Below are positions 4,945 through 54,318 of a stretch of 64,000 nt of DNA, piece after piece. The position numbers were made by a program, and so were the translations under genes. The notes beneath the pieces were generated by a model. That model had not been told where the DNA came from. It saw nothing but the letters and a program-made list of their open reading frames with translations, and searched no databases. Origin of the DNA: Lama glama. Taxonomy: Eukaryota. How positions within the stretch are numbered: position 1 is the first letter of the stretch; each line of letters opens with the position of its first letter. The DNA is taken from contig CM052816.1 of assembly GCA_028534125.1 (NCBI GenBank), forward strand, positions 88,166,001-88,230,000. Direction: 5' to 3'.

Positions 4945-5444
4945 NNNNNNNNNNNNNNNNNNNNNNNNNNNNNNNNNNNNNNNNNNNNNNNNNNNNNNNN
5001 NNNNNNNNNNNNNNNNNNNNNNNNNNNNNNNNNNNNNNNNNNNNNNNNNNNNNNNNNNNNNNNNNNNNNNNNNNNNNNNNNNNNNNNNNNNNNNNNNNNN
5101 NNNNNNNNNNNNNNNNNNNNNNNNNNNNNNNNNNNNNNNNNNNNNNNNNNNNNNNNNNNNNNNNNNNNNNNNNNNNNNNNNNNNNNNNNNNNNNNNNNNN
5201 NNNNNNNNNNNNNNNNNNNNNNNNNNNNNNNNNNNNNNNNNNNNNNNNNNNNNNNNNNNNNNNNNNNNNNNNNNNNNNNNNNNNNNNNNNNNNNNNNNNN
5301 NNNNNNNNNNNNNNNNNNNNNNNNNNNNNNNNNNNNNNNNNNNNNNNNNNNNNNNNNNNNNNNNNNNNNNNNNNNNNNNNNNNNNNNNNNNNNNNNNNNN
5401 NNNNNNNNNNNNNNNNNNNNNNNNNNNNNNNNNNNNNNNNNNNN
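4945..5444. other. Assembly gap, exactly 500 N
   Basis: N run; the round size indicates a placeholder. Confidence 0.99.
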
Positions 5445-9560: not shown

Positions 9561-10763
9561 TTACTATATCAATGCAATATAGATAACAGTATATGTTAAT
9601 ATATACTTGTATTATATATGTATGTATATGTGTGAGTACATGTGTATATCTGTATCTATATCTATATATGTATATATATAAATATAATAACACCGAGCTA
9701 CATAGGAGTAACATTTCTACATTTTATTAGAATTAAGTTAGTATGAATTTGAATCTAAGATGTATATGGTAAAATCTAGTGCAAATAAGAAAATAACTCA
9801 AAAATATAGTATAGAATTATTAAAAGCATGAACACCCCACTAGAAAATATTCACTTAGTGTAAGAGAAAGCAGCAGAGGAGAAATACAGGAATCTCACAC
9901 CATCACAGTTTTATCCTCTATAAGTGAGATTTCCAGATAATTGGAGCTTACCCCAGTTATGGAATTAAATGAAAGAAATCTGAACTAATAAGTTTAAAAT
10001 GTCTTAAAAACATATCACCTTTTCCACAACTCTTGAATATATGAAAATGAATTGTTCAGTTTAAATTGGGGAATTGTATAGTATGTGAATAAAGCTATTA
10101 CTGAAATGAAGCTTGGGAAAAAATTAAACATATGTTTGAAAAGTGAGACTCTATTACGGTGCTGGGAATAGAATAGGTTTGTTAAGGTCAGAACAGAGTG
10201 CTAATAGGAAACAATAATTAGAAAGTATTACATGCATAGTAAGAGAAACAAATTTCATTCTATATAGAAAATTGTAATAGAATCCCAATATTGCAAGGGA
10301 GCTTCAGACTCTCCAATCACGCTTAAATGTGTTCTACCGTATCTGCACCAAATATTCTGACAGTCGATGTTTGATAATTCCTGATGCTTATCATTTTCTG
10401 AGGAAATCCATTATGATCTCGTGCAGCTCTGACATCAAAGTCTCTGTTATGTTTATCTTAAATCATAGTATCTACAGATTCCATTCTCCTGTCCTATCTC
10501 CAGTTGACTGAAACTTAACAAGTAGATCTAACACTTGCTCCACATGAGTATTCTTATCAAATTAAAGGCTGCTCCATGTTCCTCCGTGTCCTCTTTCCTT
10601 CAGCCTGCATAGCCCTAGTTATTTCAATCAATCAAACCCATTGAATCAAATCTCTTCCAACCCTGGTTACTCTCTTTGTCTCTTGGCAAGATTCTGGTCT
10701 ACAGGAAATGTTCACAGTCTAGTCCCCTTTAAATACATCCACTGTATACTGTAAAAGTGATTA

Positions 10764-11415
10764 ACTTTTTTAAAAATTGAAATACAGTTAATTTACAATG
10801 TTGTATTATTTGCTAGTGTACAGCATAGTGATTCAGTTATATATATATTTTTTCATATTCTTTTCCATTATAGATGATTGTAAGACATTGAATATAGTTC
10901 CCTGTGCTCTACAGTAGGACTTTGCTGTTTTTCTATTTTATATATATTATTTAGTATCTGCAAATCCCAAACACCTACCTAATTTATCCCTCCCCCCTTT
11001 TCCCCTTTGGTAATTATAAATTTGTTTTCTATGTGAGTCTGTTCCTATTTTGTAAATAAGTTCATTTGTGTCATTTTTTTAGATTCCACATACAAGTGAT
11101 ATCATGTAATGTTTGTCTTTCTCTGTCTGGCTTACTTAGTATGACAATCTCCAGGTCCATCTATGTTGCTGCAAATGGCATATTGCATTCTTTTTTATGG
11201 CTAAGTAGTATTTCATTGTATATATATACCACATCTTCTTCATCCAGTCTTCTGTCAGTGGACATTTAGGTTAATTCCACGTCTTGGCTATTGTGATAGT
11301 GCTGCTATGAACATTGGGGTGCATGTATCTTTTCAAATTAGAGTTTTCTCCATATATATGCCTGAAAGTGTGATCTCTGGATCATATGATAACTCTATTT
11401 TTATTTTTTAAGGAA
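10764..11415 (-). mobile_element. 5'-truncated L1 3' end (cetartiodactyl-type)
   Basis: Typical L1 3' UTR/ORF2-end sequence (gtgtacagcatagtgattcag; tccatctatgttgctgcaaatggca; gctgctatgaacattggggtgcatgtatc); perfect 11-bp target duplication AAAAGTGATTA at 10753-10763 and 11416-11426. Confidence 0.9.
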
Positions 11416-13697: not shown

Positions 13698-13834
13698 GTA
13701 CTTCATAGACTGGAAGAGTGATGGGGACAGCTACTTTACAATAGACGGAACTGAAGGCACCATCGCCACTAATGAGTTACTCGACAGAGAAAGCACTGCA
13801 CAGTATAATTTCTCCATAATTGCGAGTAAAGTTA
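13698..13834 (+). CDS. CDH12: Cadherin-12 coding exon (EC4), 137 nt
   Basis: tatacAG acceptor and A|GTAAGT donor. [45 protein letters not shown] contains LDRE; phase matches the previous exon (AG+G = Arg). Confidence 0.96.
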
Positions 13835-14899
13835 GTAAGTATGGCATGGCCAGAATCAATGTTATGCTGCCGTTCTTTGGATTTCACGCTCTTAAACGAG
13901 TCCCTGCTGAGGTGTTTTTCATTTTCGGACTGACAGCTGAGTGGTCTCCTGGGGAAACTCGGAAACCTGTGCCTTTTCCTCGTAGCATAAGTCCAGAAAA
14001 ATTGTGACAGCTGCCAATGAGCCCTATTTGCAGGACTGCATGAATATCTAGTAGTGAATTTCATTGTGTGACCTCATCCCTTTCCATGCGGCAGCCTCAG
14101 ACCCCCACCGGAGCTCTGCCTTCTCTTCCATGCTGCATCCCTGTCTGTGTTGCTGGGAGCTTCGCAGGCCGGGCAGGAGGAAGTCATCATCACATGAAAT
14201 CCTCTATTCTGAAATAGAACAGAGCATTTTTAAAGTCACTTCTCATCTGTCTCTCTCCTTTCATTAGAATGTGTGTTTTTATGATCATCATTGTGGAATA
14301 GACAGGAGTTTTAAGTGCAGTTCTTCAAAAAGGCACTCAGATTCCATAGGATTATTAAGAATGACTCCTTGTGTTGGTTCCTGCTTGGTCCAGGACAGAA
14401 GCCTAACGACTGAGAGTAATTATAGGTCTTACTTGTTCAGCTGAAGAGTTGAGGATATTATCACAGCTTCCTGAGGTAACAGATGAGGGTGGGAGCGGTG
14501 ACATTTGGCTGTCAGCAGAGTTATTTGTAAGAGAAGTCCTTTGTACCGATCCTGTTTAGAGTCTCTTGAAAGATCTGGAGAAATCCCTTCTGAGTATTTC
14601 TCATTTTGTTTTCTTCTTATTTCCTTTTATGTGTCTGGTACAAAGACTTTGGCAGCTAATGTCATCTTCTCATGCAGGGAGGAGCTAACAGTGAACATTT
14701 CTGCTGAGGCGTTTTTGATCAGTTTCAACTCAGCGGGGTGTAAATATGAGAGAGTTGTGTTCATCTTCAACAACTGCTCCCAAACATGAGTCATCAGAGA
14801 CTTATCCCCAGGCTTTAATGATGTTTTTAGCTGATTGCATTACTTCTACATTACTGATTATTAGAGGCAAATCTAGCTTAAAAGAACATGCAGCTTCTG

Positions 14900-15196
14900 T
14901 CTTGTTTGTTGGATTTCTTCTCTTTTATGTAAGAAGACTGACTACTCTGAAGCTGTCATGCTGGAGGCTGGTGGTCAGGTTGACAATCCCAGCCCAGCTC
15001 AGCCTTTTAACCACACCCACCAGAGTGCTGGATATATAAGTCAAACTGTCTTGGAACCTCTAGCCAGATTGCTTGCTAGCTGAGTACCACACTGTAACCT
15101 CCACAAAATTATGAGAAATACTAAAATTGTAATTATTTCAAGCAACTATATGTTGGGGTCGTTTGTTGCTACCTGGCAGTAGATAACTGCAGAACT
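14900..15196 (+). mobile_element. MLT1-type MaLR LTR fragment
   Basis: MaLR 3' end: cacaaaattatgagaaata...atgttggggtcgtttgttgctacctggcagtagataactgcagaac. Confidence 0.55.
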
Positions 15197-18100
15197 CAGT
15201 AACACCAACAACAACACCAACAAAGTTGAAACTTTGACTCCTTGGTTGTGAGGGTGACTCTTGATTGTCCAATTTGTTAGACTGGAAAGGAGGGAGAGGA
15301 ATGAAAAGTATGAGTCTCTCTTCTCTGTCTCCACCGAGTGTTCCCTCCGCTGCTGCTGCTTCTAGGATTAAAATGGACTGGCCCAGTGGACTGCCACATA
15401 CTGTCCCTCTTCAAGTACCTTTTGAGTTATTTGGCGGTGGGGGCTCTGAGCATCCCACCTGTGGTAGATCTTACGGCTTCTTAATCCCAGGTCCCATTGT
15501 TCAGCAGGTGGCTTTCTTGGGTGAGTTAATAGCATGATTTCTCAACTTCCTTCTGTTATGTCCACTTGACCTTGCGGAGATGACACATCCTTGTCAGGCT
15601 AAACAGGTCCATTACAGGCTGCTCCTCTATTGTCTGCTTTCTCTCTCCTGCCATCTTCTTTCAGCTCTGTTCTTCTTGCTCAGTTAGGCTCTGAGAGCAG
15701 GTCATCCAGTCCGCTGCCTGAGCCGACTGCTATCAGGAGAACTGAACTGAATGCCAGCCTCCCCCTTTTGGAGGACCCCCATTCTCTTTCAGTTGTTTTC
15801 CTGAAGTCTCCTCTCATGCTAGGCATCCTTCCTTTCCTCCCGTATCACATCCTATTACAGTTACGTATGTTATTCATCATTCTTTTTATGTTTTCAATTA
15901 TTTCATTCATCCATAATATTGGGAACAGTGTAAGCATATTATAGTTAGAAAATAAACTTTAGCTTTGGAAGATCTTCGACAAGTATAATGAACATAAATT
16001 GTCTAAGTATGATGTATAAGACCTCTAGGAACCACATTACATTCCCTCTAATGGCTTGGATGTAGCAAGTGACAACTGACCAGAGGTAGTCTCTTCAAAT
16101 AGCTTCTATTTATCAAACGTATTGTTCTAATAAAATGTTATTCATTAGAAAACTATTAATGTAACCTAACTTCCCTATTAATGCACATGCAAACCTCGTG
16201 CCTTTTTTTTTTTTCTGAAGAGGAGTGGTAGGTCCAGTACCTTAACTCAGGATGAAAGCCTGCAGATAGTTCTTCTGTCACCTGTTTTGTAGCTTTAAAG
16301 TCTCTTTCTCTCCAGTGGTACCAAAGCCGCCAAAACCGTCATCACGGTGTGAGGGCACCTGGAGTAGCAGGTCTGGTCCCTCCAATCAGAGCCTGGGATT
16401 CAGCCATTTGGAAAATGGAAGGGGAGTTTGCACACTTACAGAGCAAGTGGTGTCATTGTTCCTTAAAAGCTTAGCTTTGTCAAACTTAGAAAACTGTGTT
16501 TTGTTAATTATCAGTATAATTAGGGCACACGCTGGCTCCACTCTGACCTGCTGGATGTAGTCTTTACCTAAATGCACATAAGGAAACCCCAGTGTGTGGA
16601 TTCTCATAAGTTGTGTTGGCCCTCTCTGGGACATATGTAGAACTGGGACTTCGACTCACAAGCCACACATATACACCATGCAAGAAGACTGTCGAGCTAA
16701 TATTTCTAAAATATCTACCCCTCATCCATTTCAGTTCTATTCAAAGACTAGTGTGTGGAGTATAGAGCCCTCAGAGGAGTCTGGTCGGACAAACACTACA
16801 TGCCTGCACGAAAAAGGAAGAGGCTGTTCACACATCGCATGGTAATTAAAGACTCTCCAGTAAGAATAGGTTATTGTGGGCTTCATTTTGTTTGAGTTCA
16901 CAGAGTTTGAAAGTAAACTTTATTCATATTTTAATACATAAGGCTGTTTTCATTGATCAAACTAGCCAGCCTGAGCAGGAAACCATCAGCATAGTGAATG
17001 ACTGAGAAATAAACATCCCACACTTGCCCTGCCGAGAGGAACGAAACTGTGTAAGTACACCTTATTGCAGATTGAACTAGCATGTTTTGGCCCTGACCTT
17101 TCTATAAAAACTCTCAGATGAAAAGAAATGGTACAATGATTGAACAACTTCCAATTAATTAAAAAGCAGTCATTAATCAGTGTCGCTATAGTTGGAGGTC
17201 CAAAACATTGTATTAGACTCCTAATAATTCTTTTATGCATTACAGCTTTGCTGTTTTTATGACACTAATCTTCAGAATTAAAAAAGGAAAATGGAAGCTC
17301 CGAAAATTCACTTCATTCAAATTATCAGAAACTTTCAGCAGGCAAATATTTCTAATTTTTTGGTTTTTTTGGTATTAGTACAGCACATATCACTAGGCAA
17401 CGATAACTAAAAATAGCTACCTTAAAGCCCTAGAACTTTATATAATTATAAAATAAATGGATGATACCAGAGAAAATACGTATTGTTCTGATCATGTTAG
17501 TTTACAGATGGCAACAGGTTGTTTCCGTTTACTGTAGAATAAGTCAAAAGTCAGTGGTTGACTTACTAAGTGCTATTCTGGGAAAAATGTATGTAAGTAT
17601 CTGGTTATGAGTTGGGATTAAATTGTTGGGTAATTAATTTTTAAGGTTATTGGATACTAAATCTCCTTTGTTTTAACTTTTTTCTACATCGACATAATGC
17701 AAGTGATATCATCTTCATATGTACAGAAAAATCAGATTTTTAACTATAATTAGTCTCAGCATAAATTCATCTAATTTTTATAAACTTCTGTAGAACATCA
17801 TTTCTGTGCAAAGCGTTTTTGGTTGTGGGTTAGAACTAAGACTGAAGTCTGTTCTTAAGGATAGTTTAAGAGTAGTTAGAAATGGATCCAAAAATTATTT
17901 TAGTATGTTATAACTATGCAATTTATGTTGGATTCCAGGGACTTCAGATTTAAGTGTACTCTCACGTAGTCTCCAGGGGAAAGCTGCAAAAGGTTTATAC
18001 TGACCATTACTGTTAAGTAATGAAGCATTTAAACAAAAATAAATAGGTTTTTTAAGTTGAATTTTCTGAAGGGTTTCTTCTGCCTATGTGGCAAATTGTT

Positions 18101-18792
18101 AGCTGTGAAATTACATTCTTAGACCAAATGAAAAGTACCTAGTTTTTCTAGGAAAATAGGAAGTAAGTATAAACTAGTAAACCAAACTATTCTAATAGTT
18201 TTATATACATTCACTCAGGTTATTACTGTCCACACTGTAGGAGGGAGGAAATGGAGGCTGAGATATTTCGTTTGTCACACAGGCAATAATGACCAAGCTA
18301 GTATTGGAGCCCATCACTCACTCCAAAACACAATTTCACAGGGACACGGATTCACTCTCCTATACTTCATTTTACTGGACTTTAAATAAGTTAACAGTAA
18401 AATTAATCAAGGAGAATTTCACATGCATGGATAGCTAAAGTAAATATAGTAAAAAATATATATATATTTGCAGTGTATGTGTCATTGAACTGAAATTATT
18501 TTTAATCTTGGCATCTGTCTATTTAACCTATCTACCTATCTTTAAACTCGTTAGACTGCTTACCTATTAGAATTCAATAGTGAATTTGCATTCTAGAAAT
18601 AAAATACAAAGACTCAAAAGATGAAAATTGGGAAATACATGTGCAATATTATGTGTGTGGCAGTGTTGTTGATAGGTAGATTTCTATCTGTGTCCAATAA
18701 GTGTTAATTACTGTATCAGTCTCAAGTTACAAGACGTCAATGTGAAGGATCCTTTTGGGTAATATCCCTGTATGTAGAAAAATGTTGTCTAC

Positions 18793-19137
18793 CTACACGA
18801 TGCTGCCTCTCACCTCATGGCTGCCCTTGGCGGCAACACCCTTCCCAGCACCAAGGATGTAAAGAAGATCCTGGACAGCATGGGCATTGATGAGGCGGAC
18901 AATGACCTGCTAACAAGGTCATCAGTGAGCTGACAGGAAAAAACACTGAAGGTGTCACTGCCCAGGGTATCCACAAGCTGGCAGCGTGCCCACCTCCAGA
19001 GGGCAAGTCTGCACTCCTGCTGCTGGTTCAGCCCTGGCCTCGGCAGAGAAGAAGGGCACAAGGAAGGAGGAGCCGAATCAGTCAGATGGCTCCATGGGAT
19101 TTGTCTTGTTCAATTAGTGTCCTGCTCCCCTGCAAAA
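18793..19137 (+). pseudogene. RPLP2: Processed pseudogene of 60S acidic ribosomal protein P2
   Basis: Intronless translation LHDAASHLMAALGGNTLPSTKDVKKILDSMGIDEADNDLL/NKVISELTGKNTEGVTAQGIHKLA...SDGSMGFVLFN* compared with RPLP2 MRYVASYLLAALGGNSSPSAKDIKKILDSVGIEADDDRLNKVISELNGKNIEDVIAQGIGKLA...SDDDMGFGLFD*. No ATG, frameshifts, and a 3' UTR-like remnant cctgctcccctgcaaa. Confidence 0.93.
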
Positions 19138-19149
19138 GTGATGTGATGT

Positions 19150-19297
19150 CAATTCTGACATTGGTGGTGCCATTTTTGCCCCATTCTATTGAGTAAAAGC
19201 AAATCATTAGATCCAGCCCTCACTTAAGGGCAGAGCATTATATGAAGGTAACTCATGTGGATGTCAGGAAGCTGTTTCAACAAGTTGCCTATCATAT
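19150..19297 (-). mobile_element. MLT1-type MaLR LTR fragment
   Basis: ccatttttgccccattctattgagtaaaagcaaatcattagatccagccctcacttaagggcagag...gcctatcata. Confidence 0.55.
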
Positions 19298-19693
19298 GTG
19301 GCTCTTGGCAACTAGACAAGTCTCTCTCAAAGTGCAGAACATCAAGAGACCATGTGACTTGACCACAAGGCCTGAAAATTTTGTGTTGAATTCATTAAGT
19401 ATACAACCAAAACACAAAGTGCTGTAGGAGAGAAAATAATTAAAATAATTATTTGCCAAAGCATAAACATAGTATGTCATATAAAAATTATCATTTGAGC
19501 TAAATCTTTAAGAGATGAAAAAGATATTGAGAGGGAGGAAAGAAGGACATTCTAGGTTAAAGAAACATCTTCAGCAAAGGCAGAGAGGTATCAGAGTTCA
19601 TGGACAGATGAGATTTTACAAGTAGAGTAGCTCAGCTGGTGTCCAGACTTTGTAAGCGGATTAGAGAAAATGCATTCAGAAGGGAAGCCTGAG

Positions 19694-19953
19694 ATCTACT
19701 CTGTGAGAAACTTCCTAATATAAGGTTCAAGGTTGTTAGCTGTTGTCACCAAGCAGTACATTACATCCCTACACGTGATCTAGTTTATAACTAGAAGTCT
19801 GCACATTTTGATCACCTTCATCCTTTTCCACCCCCTCACCCCCACTTCTATAGCCACTTCAAGATAGATACAAGTATTAAATCATTGTGTTATACACTTG
19901 AATTAATATAACACTAGCTGTCAATTATATCTCAATTTTAAAAAAAGCATAAA
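19694..19953. mobile_element. Short L1 (L1MA9-like 3' UTR) with a 5' inversion
   Basis: 19694 to about 19850 is L1 3' UTR on the minus strand; about 19851-19953 is the L1 terminus plus A tail on the plus strand. Flanked by a 16-bp duplication with 14/16 identity. Confidence 0.75.
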
Positions 19954-20379
19954 AGAAAGGAAACCTGAGGACTTATCAAAGAGAGCCTTAAATGCCTCAC
20001 TGAGAAACTGCAAAGTTTTTCAGGTGCGTTTTTGAACCAATCCTCATTCCTGCTGTTTCTACGTGTTCCCAGTTTAATATATGTCCAAAGAGGCATATGT
20101 CACTTCCCCAGCTTTCCCCAGCTGGCGGGTCTGGAAGGTAGTTTCGCAGGGACCTGCATTCCTATAAGCCAGCACTGACTGGGTTACATCGTATCCACCT
20201 GGGTGACCACGGTTAACCTCACTAGTATCAAGTGACAGGCCTGACTCCAGACTCTCTGCAGTGGTGAGCAGTAGACATTGCTTTCTAATTTGGCCAGTGT
20301 TTCTTCAAAAGAGCACTGTAAGCCACATGCACATTTATTGAGAATGGACGTACAGGTTGGCCTTTCTTTTTTTACTACT

Positions 20380-20545
20380 GTTCTTTAACTTTTCAACGGT
20401 TACTTGCATCAGAATCACCTGGGACAGTATTCCTGGACCCCATTCAAGACATACTGGATCAGAATTTTGAGAATTACTGCCAAGAAATCTCTTTTTTAAA
20501 CAAGATACCTAGGTTATTAATGGATATTGATGTTGGAACCAGTGT
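20380..20545. mobile_element. MER5A-like hAT-Charlie MITE
   Basis: gcatcagaatcacctggga...ttcctggacccca...atcagaattttga...tttaaacaagatacctaggttatt...ggaaccagtg. Confidence 0.65.
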
Positions 20546-21684
20546 ACCAAATGCTCCAGATTTTTAAAGATTGGCATGGATTTGGGGATGTTAAAGAGTA
20601 TAATGTTACTGTGAAGAGATGTATTTTCTCAGAGAGTGCAGCTGGCTTTTGAGGACTAAATGTAACCATTGGTTTCCATTCTGGATTGAAGTCATTATTT
20701 TTTTCTTTTTATTTCTCAAATAATTGCCTTTCTCTTACTCTTCACGAATACCCTCCTTTACACATATGAGTGTAGGTAGTTTATCTACCATTTACTAATT
20801 TCCTTTCTTTTCTCTAAGTAACTATATGGCACTATTTTGTATTCTCAAAGAAAGTTAAGTTTTATTTCTAATAGTATTGGCAACATTTTAATAGTACTTA
20901 TAAATGAAATACATACTGTGAAGAAAGTATAAATATTCAACTATTTCATGAAACCTTCAGTGTATTATATACATTAATAATAATCATTAACATCACCATA
21001 GTCATCTACTTTATTGAGAAATGGTACTATTTTTCTTACTATTATATGATGTGTAAATATAATGGAATACAAATTTGTTGTGATTGTTTATATTTTATTT
21101 TAAACTTTCAACTGCTTATGGGTACACTACCATAATCAAACTACTTAGGAGTCTTTAAATCAGTAAAACTGCTCTATCAAAATCACATCCAAAATAATAA
21201 TGAAAGGCTTGTTTTTTTTTCTTAATTAGTATCTGATTTTTCTCAGGAAATTAAAACCACATGACAAACTTTCCACCTGAAGGTTGAAATTTGGATGAAA
21301 AAATTATGTTTAGATATGTACAGAAAATTCCTTTTAACATCACATACCAAAAATGGAATTCAAAAATAAAAAAAATATTTTTTACATTGAAAATATCATT
21401 GACTTTATGAACTATATTGTATTTCATTTATTTGTATAGTGAGCCTCTCAGTTGTGAAATTCTTATTGTCAGAAACTTTATCTTATACATCTCTGATGCC
21501 TGTGATTTATCATACTCTCTGGAACATATGGATGTGTACATAATTAATGAATAAATGGTGAGCTTTGTGGCTATTTGAAATATATGACATATTAAATCTT
21601 AAGGGACCATTATTATATCATAACTTTTATTAATTTTTCAAGAAATTTATCATGAATATAAATGTAACAGCAAAATTTTACTAC

Positions 21685-22900
21685 TTCATTTATTCATTCC
21701 TTGCTGTATATTAAACACTGTTCTTTGTATTCAGAGCAGAAGTTTACAATGAAAAAAATATCTTCCTCATATTGACTTATAATCTACTAGGCATCAAACA
21801 TGATTAACTGCCAATAAGAATATCATGTTATAAATGTTAACATGGGAAATAGGAAAATAAGTAGGGTATTATGAGAGCACACAGAAAGATAAAGGGGATT
21901 CCTCCATGAGAACACAACATCTAAACTGAAAAGTAAAAGATTAGGAGGGAAAGGAGGGCAGAAAGGTATTTTAGATGCTGGAAATAGCACATGCGAAGCT
22001 CTAGAAGTTGAAGAGTGCATAAGACAGTCAAAGGAATATAAAGTAATGTAGTATAGGAAAAAGTAAATAAATTGAGGGTGAGTAAAAGATAAAGCTCCTC
22101 TGTCTCTCTTATTCTTTGTCTTTCTGTCCCTATCTCTCTGTACTTACCTCTTCTAAATAATCTCCTTCTACAAATGAAAAGAATCTAGATACAAAATATG
22201 AAGGCTATTTTTCCAGCATATTATAATGTTATTTCATTGTGAAGTAAAAAGTCAGTACTGAAGAGGTGTAGTCAAAAACAGGATTTGATATGACTGGCTT
22301 TGTTGAAAATTTATACTGGAAGCAGAATGGCAAATCGGTTGGAGTAAAGCAGGGTTGGAAAATGGTAGAAAAAATGGAAAAATTTTGGGATAATCTAAGG
22401 CAGAAACTGATGACTTATAGAGTAATGGCAAGGACGATAAGAAAGAAATGGAGATATTTCAAGGAAAGTTGAGAGGTGAAAATGGTAAAAATTAGTGTTG
22501 ATTGGATATGGCAATGAGGTGAATGAGGAATCATCATTAGTGGTCAGATTTTTAGATAGGCAGCAGGAGGGCTGCGGGTGCCATAAACTGAGGTAGAAAA
22601 CATAGAATGAATGGTTTTGGGCAAAAATTATGAGCTCAGTTTTGAACAGGTTAAATTTTATATTCTTGCTGCTCATGAAGGTCGTCATGTATATATGTCA
22701 TGTGTATAAGGATCAAGAAGTCAGGAGAGGGACTTAAGTCTGATAAATAAATTTGAGGTTAATCAACATATAGACTATAATGAGTATGTGAGTACAAACC
22801 ACGAGAAGTGGTTCTATGATGTGGACTTAGCCATTTACGGGTTAGGCAAAGAAACAATAGAAAGACTGGGGAACAAAAAACTTGCTAATGGGTAGAAGGG
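21685..22900 (-). mobile_element. Degraded L2 fragments
   Basis: Starts with the ttcatttattcattc tail; internal motifs atagcacatgcgaagctctagaag and tgagctcagttttgaacaggttaaattt. Confidence 0.6.
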
Positions 22901-24799
22901 AAGAGAAGTATTTAGGTCCTATAAACAACATTTTGGTCAACTAATTTGATGAGAACCATAGGAGAGAGGGGAGGTTAGAGGATAAAACACAGCTTTGAAT
23001 TCTTTGCACTGTATTCTCATTGCTTCCATGATTTAATTGATTTTAACTAATGAGAAATAATACATAATCAAACTATTAACAGTTCATTATGTTTTTCTAA
23101 GTGACTGTTTCCCAAATTTGATTGTTTACTGACCTGTTAACTACCTGTATAAAAGCATCTCCTTTTAATTAAATTGATCAAAAATCAATAATGGGTTTTA
23201 CATGCCTTCAAAATACCAATTTAAAATTCTGTTATTATATTAAAGAAAATCACTTGAGAAAAAAATGTTAAATTATAGATAGTTGAACATAAAGTAAAAT
23301 GGCACCTAATGTTAACCGTGGTCTTGCTGGCAATGGATGAATTCAAGGAAAATATATTGACTGTCTCAGTGTCGGTGGGTCATGTTCAGCAGAGGATTCC
23401 TGTTACATTAGCTGTAATAATCCACTTTTGCTTCTCAGTTCAGTCTGTTTTTGAAAGTATATTTATTCATTGGTATGTTCAGTTTGTTAGCTTCTACTAG
23501 GCACTCTAGTGTTAAACTCTGGAGGTTTAAAGATGAATATGAGGTGGTTTCTGCTCTCAAGAAACTCAGAATATCTAAGGCTTTGTGTTATTGAAAATAT
23601 TTAAAATCAGTAATAAGTTTCTCTGCTGTGTTCTTTGCAAAGAAATTGATTGGTGGTATTTTTAAAGACTTCTTATTCTTTGGAGATCAGTTTTTGTCAT
23701 CAACAGCACCAAAGGTAATTTTTGACTTTAGCATAGGTTTACACAAATAATTTAAATTCTCTTTATGGATGGCTCAGTCTAGCTACAGATCATACTATGG
23801 TAATTGAACAGAGCTATTATTAGATACTGTTTATCTCGTAATTTAAAAGTGAAGTGATTTAAAGAAAAAAGATAAATAGAGCCTGTGTTTTTTTATTCAC
23901 TATACTTTGCTCAGTTTGCATTATAATTCAATTTTTGGTGTAAAAAGCTAAGATTTCATTCTTGAAGTTATTGTAGTTGCAATTTTGTACATAGTGATAA
24001 AATTGAATTTTGAACTCCAATAGTTATTCAAAAGCAGGTGTTGTTTTTAAAATAAGGAAACCTAATAACTCCAGCATATTTTCATATAATAGGAGTATTG
24101 TGTTTGTTAGTACTTTGTGGTTTTTAAAACATTTTCAATTACACTTTTCGTTTAGTTCTTGGAAACATTTCTATCATTTGCCCAGCATTTATTGAGTATC
24201 TACTTATGTGATTAAAAACAACAAACAAAAATACCTCTTTGACGTTTGAGTATAAACTGGGCTTCCTCACAGCACGCTGGCTAGATTGCAGTATAAATGT
24301 GACTCATTGAAAGTGAGTGAGCATCACTTACATGGCAGATCTCACGCAGTGTGTTTTCTTAATCTCTGAGTTATTCGATGTATATCATAAGGTGCAAAAA
24401 ACATAGTAAGGGGATTTGGATTCCAGTCTTGGCTCTGACACAAAGCATAGGGCAAGATTACGCTAAAGTTTTCTCACCTGTAAATAACTATTTATAGATC
24501 TGTGTTTTTCAAACTCTGTTGATCACCAGGACACTTGGTCAAATGAAATCTTATGTGAGATACCAATATAGCACATACAGAGAACTATGGATAAAGCCAA
24601 TGACTTCTCTTTGCTTCCTGTAAAACTCCTTAGCACCAAAGAGGACGGCACAAGAACTGTAAATTTATATCAGTTTTTAGATTTAAATTTTAGAGGGCTT
24701 TTTGTTTGTTTTTGTTTTGTTTTTAGGATTTATCAAAAGTTACAGTGCTAATAACTAGCAACCAGTGAACCCATTCCTAAGAGATTTCTGATTCCAGGT

Positions 24800-25170
24800 T
24801 CCAAAAAGGGCTGCGTCTTTGTGTCTGTCCCATCCCATATGTTCTTCTTACAATGAGGCTGACATTTCTTTTACCTAGAAGTGAAGTCTATCTTCTCCTC
24901 CCGTAAATTTGGAAAGGGGCTGGAAACTGCCCTAACATAGAGGAGAAGTGTTCCTATGTGACCGCATTAGGTCATAAAAGCAGTAGTTTCTGTCTGAATT
25001 TTTCTCATTCTTGAAATTCATGCCCTTGACCTCATGCCACCATGTTGTGAAGGAGTCAAGTTTACATAGAGAGACAATGCATGAGTATTCGTGTCTACAT
25101 TTCCAGCAAACCGCCGGCATCAAGCACCGGACAGGTGAATCAGTGAAATTTCAGATGATTCCAGCTAAAA
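24800..25170 (+). mobile_element. MLT1-type MaLR LTR fragment next to the makorin retrocopy
   Basis: gaagtgaagtctatcttctcctccc...taggtcataaaagcagt...gccaccatgttgtgaaggag...cagatgattccagc. Confidence 0.55.
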
Positions 25171-25198
25171 AAAGCACCAATTCAGGGAGCAATGCCAT

Positions 25199-26560
25199 TC
25201 TTTGTTCTTCTTCATTCTTCTTCATTCTTCTTCCACTCACTCTTTATTTCTGATGGCTTAGGTTCATCTTGTTGGTTTTCCTTCAGTATCCTCCTACAAA
25301 AGAGCAAAGGTAAAAACCAAGGTTCTGATAAGAGAGTGAGAACGCCCTCTCTTTCCCGAGAGCACTTCCCCTCCTCCACGTCCCCCACTGTCTCACTGCT
25401 GCAGTCCATGGTGGGGGCACGTGCTACTTTCCTCCCCCACCAAGTCCAACAGGAAAAACACTGACCGCCTGCTACCACCTGGGCTCCTCAGCCTTCCGCC
25501 CCACTCGTTGATCCTGGGTACTGGAGGCCATGGTAAGAGCTGTTGGGATCATAGGAATTCTGAACCCAAGGCCATGACCAGGGCACAGTCCCCGAAGAAC
25601 ACTTTGGTCCTCTGGCTTGGCATCGCCTAAGAACACTGCTGGGCTCAGCACCTCACTCCCAGAGGCCAGCTGCACACTCTTGGGTGAGGAAGGACCTTAG
25701 CTGGGAGCTGGTGCAGGTAAACACAGTCAGACTTGAAGGCACAGTGGCCATTCTCCCACATGAAGAACTGGCCTCCGATCTGGCTGATGCGAGCCTTGGA
25801 GCTCCTGCTAGGTTGCCCCTTGTCAGTCTCTGTGCTCACATAGAATACATGGGGTACGACGTGGCTGGAATGGATCTGGCAGTGATAACAGGCTTAAGGA
25901 AGTCCAGAGAGAAGTCCTGCCCTCTCTTCAGCTACAATCACTGGCAGCCCAGACAATGGGCGTGTCCAGCTGGACAGGATGTGGAAGATCCATTTGGCCT
26001 CTGGCTTGATCCACATCTCGTCTATGCAGATGCCACATATGATGCCCTCACTGTCCTTCTCCCTCTCAAGGTCCAAGCTCTGAAGTGGGCCAGGAGCTCC
26101 TAGGAAAGGGGCTGACTTGGGCTGAGACTCCTGGGGGTGGCTGTAATCTCCATCAGCAGATGACTGCCACCAACCTCCCTGGCCTTGCTGGCCAATCCCT
26201 CCAGGCCAGGCTCTGTGTCCCCAGCAAGCCCCTTCCCAGTTCCAATCCACAGCCCACAGACGGCAGGAACGTGGGCTCAGAGCCCCTGTGGGTCAGGGCA
26301 GGGCAACATTTGGCTCCAAATGGTGGTGGCCCCACTCCAGGTGGCTTGGGGACCACGGGAGCTGATAGCTGCATCAATCTCCATGGAAGCAGAAGACTTG
26401 CTGGAAGTGTCTGCAGACCTGGGACAAAATGAGAGCTCGAGCCCCAGCAACAGCCCCCTCTGGGCAAAGTCCCTACTCGGTGCCTGGAAATGAACGCTGC
26501 TTCCCCCACCGTGGCCAGTGGGCTCTGCAGGGAGCCCATCTCAGCTGCAGCCCCCAAGTC
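25199..26560 (-). pseudogene. Processed pseudogene of a makorin-family CCCH/RING E3 ligase (makorin-4-like lineage inferred)
   Basis: Minus-strand translation gives a CCCH finger VCRHFQQVFCFHGD*CSYQL (26418-26359), a RING CGIC (26037-26026)...HAHCLGC...CYHC (25890-25879) and a C-terminal finger GHCAFKSDCVYLHQ (about 25749-25708). It has in-frame stops and frameshifts, AATAAA at 25248-25243 followed by a decayed A-rich tail, and is GC-rich against an AT-rich intron. Confidence 0.88.
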
Positions 26561-26859
26561 AGACTCCTTCTTTCCTTGTAATATATATTTTAATATGTCT
26601 TATCACCAGGATTCATTTCCTATTGCTGCGTAACACATTATCATGGAGCTTCTTTGGGTCAGGAATTCTAAGAGAGTTCATCTTAATATCTGCTCCAGGA
26701 AGTCTGGAAGACTTGGCAGCTGGGCCTGGAATCTCCGCAAAGCTCTTGCACTTCAGAAACCGAAAGGCACTGAAACGTTTTGCTTTCTGCAGTTAATTAA
26801 GCTCCCAGTAAGGAGTGATGTCAGTCCTCTTTTCTTATCAATGAAGCACACTAGTTTTG

Positions 26860-28340
26860 AAGTTCATTCATGATGTAGCATGTATCACTATTTTCTTCCT
26901 TTTTATTGTTATAGAATTTTTAATTGTGTGGATATTCCATTGTTTATCTATTCACTGAAAGACAGACATTTGAATTGGTCCCAGTTTGGAACTACACACG
27001 TAACGCTTCCGTAATATGCATCCAGGCTTTTTGTGGACATTCACTTCATCCTCTTGGCTAGACACCTAGGAGTGGAATTATTAGGTTATAAGTTCCTGTT
27101 TAATGTTTAAAGAAAGTTCTGGCCTATTTTCTAAAGTGACTACACAGTTTTACATCTCCATCAGCAATCTATTTTATTTCTCTGAGCAATGATTTGTGAA
27201 TTTCAGTTTGTAAGTCCTGCATTTATTTTGCTAAATTAATTCCTAAAGATTTTATTATCTTTGATTCTATTGTGAATTGAACGGTTTTGCTAATTTTATT
27301 TTCAATTTATTATTTGATAGTATATTAGGTATGCAATAGCCACCTTTTATATTGTTCTCTTAGCCTGTGGCCTTGATACACTCTATTATATCCATTAGTT
27401 TCCTTGTGGATTCTTAGGATTTCCTACCTATAGGATCTTGTCATTTTTTAACAAAAACACTTTTCTGTTTCTTTCCAATCTGAATACTTTTTTTTTTTTA
27501 TATTTGATTGCAATGGGTAAACCCTCAAGTGTAATGGAGAATGTGTAGTCAGAGCAGACATTCCTGCCGTGTGCTCAGTGTTGGAGAGAAAATATTTAGT
27601 TTCTCACCATTGAGTGTGATGTTAGCTATGGCTTTCTTGTAGATTTACTATGTCAGGTTGAAGATGTTGCCTTCTGTTTATTATTTGTTGACAGGTTTTA
27701 ATCATATATGGATAAAATTTTGTCAAATACTAATTCTGACTGCTGAGATGGCTATGTGATTTTTTGTTCTTTCTTCTGTTAAGATGGTATATCACATTGG
27801 TTATTATTGGATTTTAAAGTAACTTTGCATCCCTAAGGTAAATGCTATTTAGTCATTACTCATTAGGTTTATAATATGCTTCTGGGATTGACTTGTTAAT
27901 CTTTTGTTAATGAATTTTTATACCTATGTTTGTGAGTGATACTAGTCCATGCTTTGATTTTTTCCTGATGTTTTTAGTTGGCTTTAGTAATAAGACGCAG
28001 AATGAACTGGTATTTTCTAAAAGAGTTCATAAAGAATTGATACTGTATGGTCTCTAAATAGTTGTTGGAATTTCCCAGTGAAGCCATGTGGGCATGAATT
28101 TTTCTTGGTAAATTTTTAATTACAGCATAATTTTCTCCACTGTTTTAGGTCTATTAAGATTTTTTTTTAATTTTGAGATCAGTTATGAATCATTTATGTC
28201 TTTCTAGGAATCCATCCAGTTTATCTATGTTGACTAAATTTTTGGCATAAGTTTACTAGATTATTTTATAGGATGTATCTCATTTATGATAAAGTGATAG
28301 CTCCTATTTTATTCCTGATTTTCATAATTTAGCCTTTTTT
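26860..28340 (-). mobile_element. Old L1M ORF2/3' fragments
   Basis: T-rich antisense L1 motifs: cctaggagtggaatta, ttttctaaagtgactacacagttttacatctccatcagcaat, tttctcaccattgagtgtgatgttagctatgg, ggaatttcccagtgaagccatgtgggc. Confidence 0.75.
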
Positions 28341-29629
28341 TTTCTGTAGCTTAAGCCATACTTTAAAATACTAACAATAAGATCATTCTAACTCAAATTG
28401 ACTCAAAAGCTCTGGGAGCTGACTGAGATATCACCAGACGTAGAGAAAGAAGATCTAACAAAACATTCTTGACAACATGAGGAACAAAGATAGAATTAGT
28501 TATTGTTTTATCTGAACCTAAAGCTATTAATAAGCTAGTTATTCAATATAAGCAACATGAATCAATGATAATTACAGTTTAAATGGTTTGACTACTAGGA
28601 ACACAGTAATTAATTGTGTAATATTTTGGTTATTTAATATTTATTAAGTTCATATTTGAATTTGTTATCTAATTATTCAATGATAACTAGTTTCTAACAT
28701 GGCAAAGACTTGGATAATAGTGCTCATGCTGAATCAAGTTTAAGCAAATTTCACCTTTGCCGTTTCAAAGATTAGATGAATCAGAAAGAACGTCATTACT
28801 TATTCACATCATTTGGTGAATTACATAGAATGACAAAATTCTATATTACTCTAAAAAGTATATTCTCTGTGAAAAGGTGAATTCTTAAGTATAGTGGCTC
28901 TTGAATAGAAATATTACCACTTACCCAGCCAGAGTTTAAAAAATAAGGTGACATTGTTAAACCTTTAACTATAAAAAGTTTTACAAATATACAATAGAAG
29001 AGAGAATAATATAGTGAAACCCATAAACTCATCACTCATTTTAGACAATATGAATATGTTGTCTCTGTTGTTATAATTTTTCCTTTGTCCTTGTTGAGGC
29101 ATTTATTTTGTAATTGCCACAGTGATGACTTAGTAACGTTTAATATTCAGTAATTCTACAGATTCTACAGTACACAGCAAAATCTCACACAACAAAATGT
29201 TTTTATATTAATACCTAAAATACCAAAAGCACACCTTTGAGAAACACTTTTAATAATAAGATGCTACAATACTGATTATATTTTTGTGACACATTACTTA
29301 TTGGGACAGAAGTTAAAATCTATATTGAGAGAGGATAAATATTAAAATTACCAAAAGGAAATTTCTCATGGGTAAAAAACAGCTTAAATTAGTAATATGT
29401 TTCCACATTATAAACATAAATTTGTACTATAAATATAATTATGAGGGAAGTCAGGACTTTAGAAGACACCTCACCCGTATACTAACTTCATAAAATAAAA
29501 CTGTATCCTGGTTGGGGGGGACACTCTTTTCTTTTTATGTCCTTGTGATTTGTAAATTATGTACCAAATAAAATAAGAGGTAGTGATTGATTTTTACATG
29601 GTACAAAAGTTGAATAGGTTAATGTTTAA

Positions 29630-29860
29630 TAGTGTTTAAGAGCATGGACTTGAAACTAGAACACTTGGATTCAAAACTCACCTTACCACTTTTGTCTTGC
29701 AGTTTTTGGAAGAGTTACAGTCTCCTTCTGTTTTTCAGAGTTCTGTATACAATTACGGGGATAACAGTTTGTATATTAAAGTTGCTGTAAAACCTAAATA
29801 AGTTCACCTAGGAAACGTGTTTTCGAACATGGGTACGTTATAAGCATTACAAAGTATTAG
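29630..29860 (+). mobile_element. MIR SINE
   Basis: agtgtttaagagcatggacttgaaactagaacacttggattcaaaactcaccttaccacttt. Confidence 0.6.
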
Positions 29861-31510
29861 GAGTTGATTTTGGTGTACTGATTGATAATTTTCAGTTTAT
29901 TTAGGAAAGTGAAAGTAACTTAGCCAAATTGTTGATTTTATCTGTATTTTATGATATATGAGTACTTAATACTAATAACAGAAGCCGAACTAGATAATCT
30001 CCACAAATTACAGTTGGTAATGAAAATAATGACAATTTACCAAGTGATCTAACATTCTGTAAATCACCATCTGATTTAATACAACAAATCAGAAAACTTA
30101 TGAATTAGCACTTATTAATACCACAAGTTGAAGAAAGATTAAATAACTTGTGAAAACAGAACAAAGCCTTTTCTGTCATAAAAGATAATGCCATGTGACC
30201 AATATTAATGTTTAAATAATAGACATTTTATGCATCCTCCTCCAAGATTACCAATACACTTTCTATAAACAAAACCTATTTTACAAAATATACCATTTAT
30301 CCTTACTTTATGTTATCTGTGCCTGTACTGGTACACGGTAATGAATTTCACTGTGTTGTATATGAATATGTGAACATTTCTTAAGCTACTGCTGACAATG
30401 CTTTTTATTTCTTAAAATAAATTTCAGCACAGAAGACTATTGTAGGCTTATCAGAATCAGTCATGTGGTGACATTTGTATGCATTCTTTAAAAGCATCCT
30501 CACAGAAGTAGAAAAGAATACTAACATTATGAATCTTCGGTGGCACTGCAGAGATGAATTTACCACAACACCAATCAATAGAAAAGGTCTGGTGGAATGA
30601 ACACAATATTTGGTTTTCCATAGTCTTCGGATTGAATATTAACTCCTCATTCATCTAGATATACAACTTTGGACAAGGTCTTTCAACAATTTGTGACACT
30701 TTAGCCAACCGAAAGCTTCATTAGATAAAATTTTTCAATAAATAAGTTAAAACACATGCATTATGCTATGCCTTATTAGTTTAACTATTTCTGGTCTTGT
30801 TCCAACAAATGACAGAGATGAAGACAATGTATCTGGGACTAAAACTTGTGATGGGATTTTGGCAGTGACTCTTTTTTCAAACTACTGTTTTTTGATACTG
30901 TAGGAAGGAAAGGTTGTTTATTCTTTCCTTTCTCAGCACCAGCGAGCGATTTCAGGGTGCCTCCTAGTTTTACGTGATCTATCTCTTACTGCTACTTTCT
31001 TAAATTTACCTTAATTTTCATTTAGGAAAAGCCGTCTCTCATTCATTCTCCTTGTTATTTATCATTCTTTTTCAGGAGGAATCATTTTGAGAGTTTTATT
31101 TCAATATGCAGATGATGCTACTCAACATAGACACAACATAGAAATAAAATGTTTTATCTGGTGAAAAATACCACGATGGGTGAAGATTGGGTCTATGAAT
31201 TAGCCCTAGTATGATGGCTAGACTGGTGATGAAATTCCAGCTAAATGGTTGAACTTAACTTTAGTGGTGATTTTCAGGGACAAACGCTGGAGCAGTGCAC
31301 TGTGATGCTTTGACAGAGAAACATTGATACCACCTGTATTCATTGTTTTTTCATTTATTTTTGGCTCAAGTCCTCAGAGTTTGCCATTCAGGAAAGGTCA
31401 TTTGGATTCCATATGAATGCTGATTTTTTTAAATGTTAATGCTATTTACTATAAAAGCAATTATTGATCGGATTTTTAAATCAGCTGCTCTCTTTTTATG
31501 TTTTTATCAG

Positions 31511-31632
31511 GTAATCCATTATTAACCAGCAGAGTCAACATATTGATTAATGTCCTAGATGTCAATGAATTTCCTCCAGAAATCTCTGTGCCATATGAGA
31601 CAGCAGTGTGTGAAAATGCCAAACCAGGACAG
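31511..31632 (+). CDS. CDH12: Cadherin-12 coding exon (EC4/EC5 linker), 122 nt; absent from the supplied ORF track
   Basis: tttttatcAG acceptor and CAG|GTATCT donor. Manual translation (S)[40 protein letters not shown]; phases match both neighbouring exons. Confidence 0.95.
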
Positions 31633-35042: not shown

Positions 35043-35160
35043 ATAATTCAGACAGTCAGCGCTGCAGACCGCGACCTTTCACCCGCCGGGCAGCAGTTCT
35101 CCTTTAAATTATCACCTGAAGCTGCCATCAAACCAAATTTTACAGTTCGTGACTTCAGAA
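35043..35160 (+). CDS. CDH12: Cadherin-12 coding exon (EC5), 118 nt
   Basis: tttgtttcAG acceptor and A|GTAAGT donor. [39 protein letters not shown] contains the AxDxD motif. Confidence 0.96.
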
Positions 35161-38966: not shown

Positions 38967-39218
38967 ACAACACAGCTGGAATTGAAACCCGAAGAAATGG
39001 ATACAGCCGCAGGCAGCAAGAGCTGTATTTCCTCCCTGTTGTAATAGAAGACAGCAGTTATCCTGTCCAGAGCAGCACAAACACAATGACTATTCGAGTT
39101 TGTAGATGTGACTCTGATGGTACCATCCTGTCTTGTAATGTGGAAGCAATTTTTCTACCTGTGGGACTCAGCACTGGGGCTTTGATTGCAATCCTGCTGT
39201 GCATTGTTATACTCTTAG
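38967..39218 (+). CDS. CDH12: Cadherin-12 coding exon (end of EC5 and first part of the transmembrane helix), 252 nt
   Basis: ttttgtAG acceptor and G|GTTGGT donor. Encodes [83 protein letters not shown]. Confidence 0.96.
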
Positions 39219-42000
39219 GTTGGTTTCACTATTACTTGCATAGCCTCAGTCTGTCTTTCTTTTTCTCTCTCCCTTCTTCATGTATCTCTCCTCATTTTAC
39301 CGTATAAATCAATTTTTAAATTTTCATTGAGATGCCACAAATGGATGGAAGGAAGACTGTCTATTGGACTGAACTATATTTTTATTAAAATTAATTTTCT
39401 CTGTCTTGCCTCATGGAAATATGCCAATAGAAATAAATAAATGACATCATAAAAAATATAAATGTATGTTCAAGCCCCTAGGGGATTTTCAAGTAATAGT
39501 CTGTGACCCTGACTGCAATGAAACTTTCTATGACAAATATCCTATTTGTAGCAATGATTTCTCAATTTATTTTTTATATCCTAGTAATTATTGCTGCCTA
39601 ATAAGATTGTATAATCTTTACAATTATATGAGGTGAACAATAGTTCTCAAATACTAGTTTGATCAAGAAAGGAAAAAACAAAAGAGAACAGGAAAGAAAT
39701 AGAAAGTAAAGGAACCTCCAGTTGTCTCTTTCCTGTCTACAGTGCCAGAAAGAGCAAGTTTTATTTCACTGTTCTCAGATCTCCTCACGTCAAAACTCTA
39801 ACCATTCCCACCAGAACAGAACAGAACACACTAGAATTTCTCAAAGCGCAGTGAAGGGAAAGGCTTGAAGTAAATGTATTCTGTAACATCTCTGTGAGAA
39901 TGGAAACCTATGGTGCGAATTTCCCTCTTCCATCACCTCTGCTCAGCTGACTCCACTTCGCTTATTAATTCACAGCCAGACTCACAAAAGCAGAGAGGGA
40001 TTTTCTGTTTTGCCAGTCATCCCTTTAAATCGAAATTGCAGTGGAGGTACAGTCGGGCACCGTGGAGTCAGTTTATATATGCATGCTTATTGGTTAACAA
40101 AATATGCCAACAAATGTAGATACCTACCTTTTTCTATAATATAGAAAATAAAACTTAAAACAAAACTTACTAGGTTGCAAAGCATGGAGTAATACTATAT
40201 AATAGTTTGTGAAGGACAATTCTCTGAGTCAGAAGCTCACTTTGGTTTAGGGGATACAATTCTAGTCCAGTTTGCATGAAGTAGATATTAATTTCACCCA
40301 AGTAACCTTGGTGTGTAGAACAAAGTATTCTTTATATCCTTATAATTTGAATTATAAATTATATCTGGCATCTGTTTGGGCTGATGATATAAACTCCTTT
40401 AAAAGGGAAGATTCAAAATAATGCTCTCACATCTGAAATCGAGAATGATCAATTAGGTGTTTAACTTCAAATCTAACGTTTCTTTCTCATAGTCTTCTCT
40501 AGAAGCTGAGTCTGAGAGTATTTCCATATCAACCTAGCATGACTCAATATTCTGGATGTTTGTCTTTGGCCACTTTGGCTTTCTTACAATATAACAACTC
40601 ATGTTACTCAAAGTCAGCCTTGTCATGTACTGTCATCCACCACTCGTTCACCCAAATACTTCCCCCTCAGTGCCCCTGCACCACGCTAGCATCGCGACTT
40701 GCTGGTATACAGCAGTGAATGTTGACACCCTGAGTCTTGCCATGGCGTCTGCTTACAAATCCATCTACTCCCTGATATCCTCAACCAATCTCAGACTCCT
40801 TTAGGTCTTCCAGCTTATTCTGCCCTTCGTAGAGTGAGGAGGAGCATGAGAATCTTGTGGTGCTTGGGAACTTTTCGTTGGCCCTCAAGCACATCTAATT
40901 AGTCTCTTTCTCAGTCATGGCAACTCATTTTATACCTATGCAAGGTTTCTCTATGAGGTCTGCAGTCTCTCACACACTCTCTGAGTGAACAAACAATAGT
41001 CTCTTTAGTTCTGGGATTGGCCTAAACCCTGGAAGGGGTGCAGGGTGCTAAACATCTCTCCAAGGTACATTGTACAGAAGCTCTGCCTGTATCTCCTCTT
41101 TCCTGCTCCTTCATTTTGGAAGAAGAGGGAACAGATGAGCTTCCATCATCATGCAGACTTCTCTACCTTTTAATCGCATGACAAGAGTCTTCCTTCCAGA
41201 TTCTGCTGTGGTAAATCAAACATGTTTTGGCTTTCAACCTATCACCACTACTATGGAGGAGATGATAGTGTTATGCCAAATAAGGTTGAGCACTGACTTC
41301 ATGGTGGGAATCTGTGCTTATTTGCTCCTAGAAAAAAAGAAACACTGTCAATATAAAGATGGCTGTAAATCAATGGGAAACAAAGAGACATTCAATAATA
41401 AGGGTCTGTACATTAACTATTTCAAAACATTATCGTGTTTTAAGAAGGTAACCTGAGTAAAAGACATGTGATTTGGAAAATATCTCAATTTGGCAGGACA
41501 TAGAATTTACACAACTAGAGGTCTTAGTTGACATAATTTGGAAAACTAAGGTCCTTAGTTCTATATTCTTGTCTCTTTTTTTTCTTACTTATTGCTTTTA
41601 AAAGTGATTGTTAAATGAAGATTTGAGTTTATTTCATTAGGAATACAGTAACGTTAACAACTGAGAGATCTAGATATGAATAATATCTAAGTGTTACTTA
41701 TGGGTTATAAAATTCAAGTCATTATGTCAATGCTTTATAGCTCTCTGTATGATTGGAACAACCATTCTTTTCTGTTTTTTAAATTTTGTAACACACACTT
41801 TTTACCTGACACTGAAATATTTACATACAGTATGTGTTAAATACAAGGCTACAATTGTTTGGTTTTGTGAATAATTTTGCTATGGTTTCATGTTAGTTAT
41901 AATTTCAAAATGTAATTGAATTTTAACAATGAAGAAAAAGTCAACAGAGATATGATCTTTATTGATTACAATATGTTTACTTAGAAAATAATAGGATGTC

Positions 42001-42121: not shown

Positions 42122-42621
42122 CCATCATTGTGCTGTATGTAGCTCTGAGAAGGCAGAAGAAGAAAGACAGCCTGATGACCTCTAAGGAAGACATCAGAGA
42201 CAACGTTATCCATTATGATGATGAAGGGGGTGGGGAGGAGGACACCCAGGCTTTCGACATCGGTGCTCTGAGAAACCCCAAAGTGATTGACGATAACAAC
42301 ATTCGCAGGGATATCAAACCAGACTCTCTCTGTTTACCTCGTCAGCGACCCCCAGTAGAAGATAACACAGATATAAGGGATTTCATTAATCAAAGGCTTC
42401 AGGAAAATGATCTGGACCCCGCCGCCCCACCGTACGATTCATTGGCAACGTATGCCTATGAAGGAAATGGATCAGTAGCCGACTCCCTTAGCTCGATAGA
42501 GTCTCTCACCACAGAAGCTGACCAGGACTACAACTATCTGACAGACTGGGGACCCCGCTTTAAAGTCTTGGCAGACATGTTTGGCGAAGAAGAGAGTTAT
42601 AACCCTGATAAAGTCACTTAA
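42122..42621 (+). CDS. CDH12: Cadherin-12 terminal coding exon (end of transmembrane helix and cytoplasmic p120/beta-catenin-binding domain), stop TAA at 42619-42621
   Basis: ttgttctAG acceptor. [24 protein letters not shown] and SLSS motifs; the C-terminus [25 protein letters not shown] matches CDH12 as I recall it. Confidence 0.97.
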
Positions 42622-46679: not shown

Positions 46680-47179
46680 NNNNNNNNNNNNNNNNNNNNN
46701 NNNNNNNNNNNNNNNNNNNNNNNNNNNNNNNNNNNNNNNNNNNNNNNNNNNNNNNNNNNNNNNNNNNNNNNNNNNNNNNNNNNNNNNNNNNNNNNNNNNN
46801 NNNNNNNNNNNNNNNNNNNNNNNNNNNNNNNNNNNNNNNNNNNNNNNNNNNNNNNNNNNNNNNNNNNNNNNNNNNNNNNNNNNNNNNNNNNNNNNNNNNN
46901 NNNNNNNNNNNNNNNNNNNNNNNNNNNNNNNNNNNNNNNNNNNNNNNNNNNNNNNNNNNNNNNNNNNNNNNNNNNNNNNNNNNNNNNNNNNNNNNNNNNN
47001 NNNNNNNNNNNNNNNNNNNNNNNNNNNNNNNNNNNNNNNNNNNNNNNNNNNNNNNNNNNNNNNNNNNNNNNNNNNNNNNNNNNNNNNNNNNNNNNNNNNN
47101 NNNNNNNNNNNNNNNNNNNNNNNNNNNNNNNNNNNNNNNNNNNNNNNNNNNNNNNNNNNNNNNNNNNNNNNNNNNNNNN
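46680..47179. other. Assembly gap, exactly 500 N
   Basis: N run of the same size as the first gap. Confidence 0.99.
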
Positions 47180-54159: not shown

Positions 54160-54318
54160 TTTTTTAATTGAAGTCCAGTTGATTTTCAATATTACATTAG
54201 TTTCAGACGTACAACATAGTGATTCAGTATTTTTAAGAGATGATACTCCCTTCAAAGTTATTGCAAAATAATAACTGTGTGTCCCTGTGCTGTACAATAT
54301 ATCCTTGTTGCTTATTTA
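54160..54318 (-). mobile_element. Very short L1 3' terminus
   Basis: tttttttaattgaagtccagttgattttcaatattacattagtttcagacgtacaacatagtgattcag...ccctgtgctgtacaatatatccttgttg; imperfect flanking duplication tttatagagtaact / tttatagatttaact. Confidence 0.75.

Follow-up and report, generated by a model that had tools for sequence, protein, structure and literature searches.

A disabled, intron-less copy of a mkrn4-type makorin lying antisense in a CDH12 intron of the llama

The minus strand of a 64-kb stretch of llama DNA (the window, by which we mean the whole stretch analysed) carries a decayed makorin coding region antisense to the cadherin gene CDH12, within one of its introns. We consider it very probable that this is a disabled, intron-less copy of mkrn4, likely made by LINE-1 from a spliced mRNA in the germline of an early placental mammal and likely functionless since. 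The copy is an ordinary processed pseudogene of an unusual parent, and the new element is the parent. Its parts, in window positions and in the order in which the minus strand is read, are the following.

26540–26560, minus strand: GC-rich; likely the remains of a short part of the parent's 5′ UTR, as judged from the sequence of the copy
25518–26539, minus strand: decayed mkrn4-type coding region, from a likely start ATG (26539–26537) to the position of the parent's stop (25520–25518), now TAC, as read by eye
26425–26480, minus strand: remnant of the first C3H finger, interrupted by a deletion and two frameshifts; this finger is incomplete even in most intact mammalian parents
26359–26415, minus strand: second C3H finger, with three Cys retained, His changed to Leu (26361), and a stop at 26376–26374
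25879–26037, minus strand: C3HC4 RING remnant, with seven of eight ligands readable and two stops inside
25711–25773, minus strand: C-terminal C3H finger, its first Cys changed to Gly (25773)
25243–25517, minus strand: likely 3′ UTR derived from the parent mRNA, with AATAAA at its end and a GC content of 0.57 against an intron background of about 0.33
25198–25232, minus strand: decayed poly(A) tail, by now turned into an AAG-rich repeat, beginning 10 nt past AATAAA

In a frameshift-aware alignment, residues 9–368 of the 369-residue horse makorin-4-type protein P0006 correspond to 26519–25524, with 206 of 327 positions identical, 11 frameshifts, three stops and no in-frame insertions. The score is 816, compared to a mean of 39 and a maximum of 55 for shuffled sequences (n = 20) and 48 for the plus strand, and it bears out the makorin identity proposed in a preliminary description of this DNA. 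The homology continues beyond the last finger and reaches the parent's C-terminus at 25524–25521, and the GC content of the stretch (54–62%) departs from the 27–40% seen across most of the window. All of the peptides cited in the preliminary description are present in three minus-strand frames; its account of three frame-shifted pieces is too simple, however, as the alignment requires 11 frameshifts, or 12 with an additional 2-base shift read by eye directly after the likely ATG, among about 17 indel events in total. When a single frame was used as a protein query, with stops written as X, two of 762 candidates matched (E 5e-52 and 8e-50); they come from horse and sperm whale and carry the label makorin-1 or makorin-1-like. 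Against Pfam and PDB the single frames give only weak C3H matches (Torus at E 2e-4, below the cut-off, and Yth1 at E 0.06), and RING families are recognised on the intact horse protein. A search of the 64-kb window found no second makorin copy.

The three stops given in the preliminary description as disabling the copy are where it placed them (TGA at 26376–26374, TGA at 25940–25938 and TAG at 25934–25932). The RING remnant contains two of these as well as two frameshifts, and its third Cys is gone beside the first of these, at 25974, with the second at 25892. A zinc ligand is missing from each of the second finger, the RING and the last finger, and neither the open frame nor the intact C3HC4 RING of a functional makorin E3 ligase is found.

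The parent appears to be a mammalian mkrn4-type makorin, as judged from direct scores and from trees. Ten placental mkrn4-type proteins score 638–827 against the copy, far ahead of the MKRN1/2/3-like proteins at 99–141, in a comparison set that holds no named mammalian MKRN1 or MKRN3 and in which two unnamed proteins are presumably MKRN3-like, to judge by their motifs. A tree was built from the RING and last finger of 39 rows. The copy belongs there to a mammalian group of 15 rows (100/100), itself nested in a 24-row mkrn4 group (100/100) to which alligator and wolf-eel each contribute a protein with the name 'makorin, ring finger protein, 4'. Outgroups were drawn from 50% representatives, those with names being duck MKRN1, warbler and bat MKRN2 and wolf-eel makorin 4. 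Forcing the copy to join the MKRN1/3-like rows is rejected (p-AU 0.0017), and with the direct scores this leads us to discard a parent among MKRN1, MKRN2 and MKRN3; the assignment to a makorin-4-like clade in the preliminary description thus holds in both the alignment and the tree. Fish mkrn4 scores only 106, no better than the MKRN1/2/3-like proteins, so that what ties the copy to named mkrn4 is the tree, together with tetrapod proteins of intermediate score (wallaby 276, alligator 249). Horse P0006 has 243 relatives, and the 120 matches listed extend from mammals to coelacanth and include an alligator protein named 'makorin, ring finger protein, 4'. Domain content gives the same picture: a third C3H finger and a Cys-His motif ahead of the RING are present in duck MKRN1 and bat MKRN2, and absent from alligator, horse and alpaca mkrn4, and in the region before the RING the copy aligns to the horse linker. 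Like the copy, vertebrate mkrn4 combines a RING with a C-terminal C3H finger and lacks the third finger and the Cys-His motif, as described in the available text of Bohne et al. 2010 (PMC3022923). The C-terminal tail of the copy is that of the horse, rhino, alpaca and whale mkrn4-type proteins.

An intact mkrn4-type protein is present in alpaca. Its record lies on a 44-Mb sequence and our window is more than 80 Mb into its own, so parent and copy are likely on different chromosomes. Relative to intact mkrn4, the copy differs in having neither introns nor an open frame, in lying at another locus, and in retaining ancestral residues where camelids and cetartiodactyls have changed. A metagenome scan for parent DNA gave two loci from 149 pattern matches, only 42–44% identical, and we rejected these as the mammalian parent. 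An unnamed short protein, P0208 (ENA, 90 aa), resembles the C-terminal part of mammalian mkrn4 and shares the basal-type residues of the copy; it may come from another lineage's gene, as a fragment, or represent a further copy.

Derivation from a spliced mRNA is indicated at the positions where exons would join in the parent. We placed these at the protein level, from isoform differences within species (13 species groups) together with the protein alignment, at about horse residues 23/24, 64/65, 146/147, 178–181/182, 239/240, 275/276 and 316–324/325. The seven break points would correspond to introns of the parent, and conservation of intron positions among mkrn1, mkrn2 and mkrn4 is stated, with data not shown, in the portion of Bohne et al. 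2010 (PMC3022923) available. At all seven the copy has no insertion larger than 2 nt, and the earlier claim of intron loss stands. Two of the joins are also informative as to splice form. At 146/147 (near 26160) the copy has the short join and not the alternative-donor extension seen in long isoforms of alpaca, horse, donkey and sperm whale, and at 178/182 (26065/26064) it misses exactly the three codons that sperm whale and buffalo proteins miss in their short isoform. The form shorter by 9 nt occurs in 13 of 67 scanned proteins (there were 14 pattern matches, and one lemur row with a different gap was excluded); a chance deletion of 9 nt at exactly this point in the copy is possible, and unlikely. 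At the 3′ end AATAAA is found at 25248–25243 on the minus strand, followed 10 nt further on by an A/G-rich tail (25232–25198) in which, by our count, 23 of 35 bases are A and a 10-nt unit is repeated, in agreement with the signal and decayed tail previously described. The contiguity at seven splice points, the AATAAA and the A-rich tail together identify a processed copy.

We envisage that mkrn4 mRNA would have been spliced and polyadenylated in the germline of an early placental ancestor, that LINE-1 reverse transcriptase likely copied it into the CDH12 intron in antisense, and that the product has likely been functionless and decaying ever since. The part given to LINE-1 we infer from what is established for processed pseudogenes of mammals in general. 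A search for a target-site duplication between 26760–26520 and 25260–25100 found none, the longest exact match between the flanks being 8 nt and located inside the copy; loss of such a duplication is expected at this divergence, and its absence weakens the case for the LINE-1 route and leaves the mRNA origin unaffected. The same absence would suit a duplicate made at the DNA level, or a moved fragment, either of the mkrn4 locus or of another processed mkrn4 copy. Against such an origin are the contiguity across seven inferred splice points, the specific splice form and the A-rich tail, as well as flanks without any makorin match, and a copy of an older retrocopy would itself go back to retroposition; we regard a DNA-level origin as extremely unlikely.

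After insertion, the processed copy has decayed neutrally. Relative to the majority residue of 26 intact placental proteins, identity is 67.5% (85/126) at columns at least 90% conserved and 66.2% (129/195) at the others (Fisher p 0.90), in a test that would miss a short early functional phase; six intact proteins treated in the same way are 96–100% identical at conserved and 61–84% at variable columns. Arginine is kept at only 6 of 20 positions, as against 165 of 226 for other residues (p 0.0002), and 10 of the 14 lost have become His, Gln, Trp or a break, which is the pattern of methylated CpG decay; the copy has 16 CpG where 81 are expected. It is presumably silent. Among 24 sequencing runs listed, 18 contain 94% or more of the sequence words and 12 are possible sources of this DNA; two labelled as RNA contain 5–8% and carry no weight as evidence of transcription. 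Were the copy a former retrogene, functional at first in the manner of MKRN3 and inactivated later, this would account for the near full length with ATG and poly(A) signal, and for the readability of most zinc ligands (Cys kept at 13 of 15 positions and Phe at 13 of 14). However, conserved columns have no excess identity, the 11–12 frameshifts run from the start codon through to the C-terminus, and every complete zinc domain has lost a ligand, all of which makes a functional past very unlikely. The orientation suggests a further role, in which the copy acts as RNA, either within CDH12 pre-mRNA, where it would be complementary to mkrn4 mRNA and damp the parent, or through its poly(A) signal ending an antisense transcript. 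About 14–19% non-CpG divergence and 17 indels leave only short perfect matches to the parent, no constraint is seen, and Rfam gives no match anywhere in the 64-kb window, so that such a role is scarcely credible.

The insertion is much older than the camelids. Rhino, horse, lemur and meerkat proteins all score above alpaca against the copy. In an alpaca-guided reading, 20 sites set alpaca apart from other cetartiodactyls as well as from outgroups, and of these the copy is ancestral at 11 and derived at none, with nine other or gapped. In the same reading it is ancestral at five of eight sites shared by cetartiodactyls (one derived, two other) and at one of four Scrotifera sites (none derived, three other or gapped). 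We also built a 27-row tree (LG+G4), masking those parts of nine rows that derived from different exons or had shifted tails. In it the mammalian orders are recovered, and the copy branches outside the group formed by Laurasiatheria (83/93, unstarred). Grouping with camelids is rejected (p-AU 0.021), which together with the absence of any of the 20 alpaca-lineage changes eliminates an insertion of camelid age. Positions as sister to Cetartiodactyla (p 0.27), Scrotifera (0.30) or Laurasiatheria (0.27) are not rejected; the copy's branch is long in each of the two trees (0.81 and 0.53), so any exact placement is tentative, and in the best tree it would lie near the boreoeutherian base. In a simple simulation 67% amino-acid identity corresponds to about 0.14–0.19 non-CpG substitutions per site, and at a neutral rate of 2–2.5e-9 per site per year we infer an age of roughly 55–95 million years. 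We suggest tentatively, at somewhat short of an even chance, that the insertion preceded the split of Laurasiatheria and Euarchontoglires, in which case horse, cow, dog and human would carry the same fossil, unrecognised, in this intron of CDH12.

The antisense location within CDH12, also claimed earlier, follows from plus-strand exons on either side of the copy.

About 3504–3756, 13698–13834, 31511–31632, 35043–35160, 38968–39219 and 42122–42621, plus strand: CDH12 exons, from their match to camel cadherin-12
13835–31510, plus strand: CDH12 intron of 17.7 kb (GT...AG), defined by the exon edges and holding the copy in antisense

The six exons match camel cadherin-12 in order, and the two that border the intron correspond to camel residues 379–424 and 426–466. 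The best matches of the last exon among 3398 are Camelus cadherin-12 (98%), followed by pig and ruminants (96%); in the ESM Atlas this exon returned a generic cadherin tail alone. The immediate flanks of the copy (26560–26800 and 24800–25200) are moderately GC-rich (0.41–0.46 against about 0.33) and could belong to another old element that received it. An AT-rich stretch at about 26800–27400 on the minus strand resembles, we presume, the 3′ end of an old mammalian LINE-1. Young repeats are few in the 64 kb, as seen from the absence of Rfam matches and from a single pair of internal repeats at E below 1e-6 (10759–10837 with 54152–54228). Two assembly gaps of exactly 500 N each (4945–5444 and 46680–47179) are both away from the copy.

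Mammalian genomes contain thousands of dead retrocopies; our findings show no new mechanism, and their significance is modest. RetrogeneDB (PMC4069623) reportedly covers 62 animal genomes, and it or the Ensembl or NCBI pseudogene tracks may already list the copy. In the literature searched, which included few subscription papers, we found no report of a mkrn4 retrocopy. The available text of Bohne et al. 2010 (PMC3022923) describes numerous retrocopies of MKRN1, some of MKRN2 and none of mkrn4, did not find primate mkrn4 ESTs, and names horse, cow and human among its genomes and no camelid. That mkrn4 did retropose is thus an exception to this survey of the family, as far as its available text extends. 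Human and mouse have LINE-1-mediated processed pseudogenes of MKRN1 and MKRN2 (PMC3022923 Table 1, in the part available) which, like the copy, are intron-less and disabled, and several of which also lie within introns of other genes (ATP2C1, PCDH11X/Y). The functional retrogene MKRN3, derived from MKRN1, and human MKRN4/MKRN4P on Xp (ZNF127L1) are also retroposed makorin copies; unlike the copy, both are MKRN1-derived according to the same table, and unlike MKRN3 the copy is not intact. The parent is not human MKRN4/MKRN4P, which is a copy of MKRN1 (81% identical to it in the available text of PMC8762023) and clashes with mkrn4 in name only. In the parts available, one review (PMC9024132) merges this human gene with vertebrate mkrn4, and a bioRxiv paper on the MKRN3 CH domain says nothing of the distinction.

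The preliminary description had also held that a retrocopy implies germline or early-embryonic expression of the parent in this lineage. Such expression of the parent is likely, in an early placental mammal: since the copy lacks the camelid parent's own changes, it would record expression in a much older ancestor and not in this lineage. The 9-nt splice alternative annotated today in whale and buffalo likely existed by the time of insertion, and if the copy is shared by other orders it would provide a presence/absence marker. Were the insertion to predate the split of Laurasiatheria and Euarchontoglires, it would be the first mkrn4 retrocopy on record, missed in genomes that the 2010 survey searched, a dated record of germline mkrn4 expression, in its short splice form, in the boreoeutherian ancestor, and a second lineage from which to read ancestral mkrn4 before its loss in mice and rats.

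Finally, we note that the second N-terminal C3H finger (C-x7-C-x5-C-x3-H) is intact in horse P0006, in P0027 and in most of the aligned mammalian mkrn4-type rows. The available part of Bohne et al. 2010 (PMC3022923) describes both N-terminal fingers as absent from mammalian mkrn4 sequences, and the gene models of that time may have been incomplete. Most of the mammalian mkrn4 orthologues listed are named 'makorin-1', 'makorin-1-like', 'makorin-2-like' or 'makorin-3-like' at NCBI, where 'probable makorin-1' is a further label; among the proteins listed, 'makorin 4' is attached to just a few reptile and fish records.
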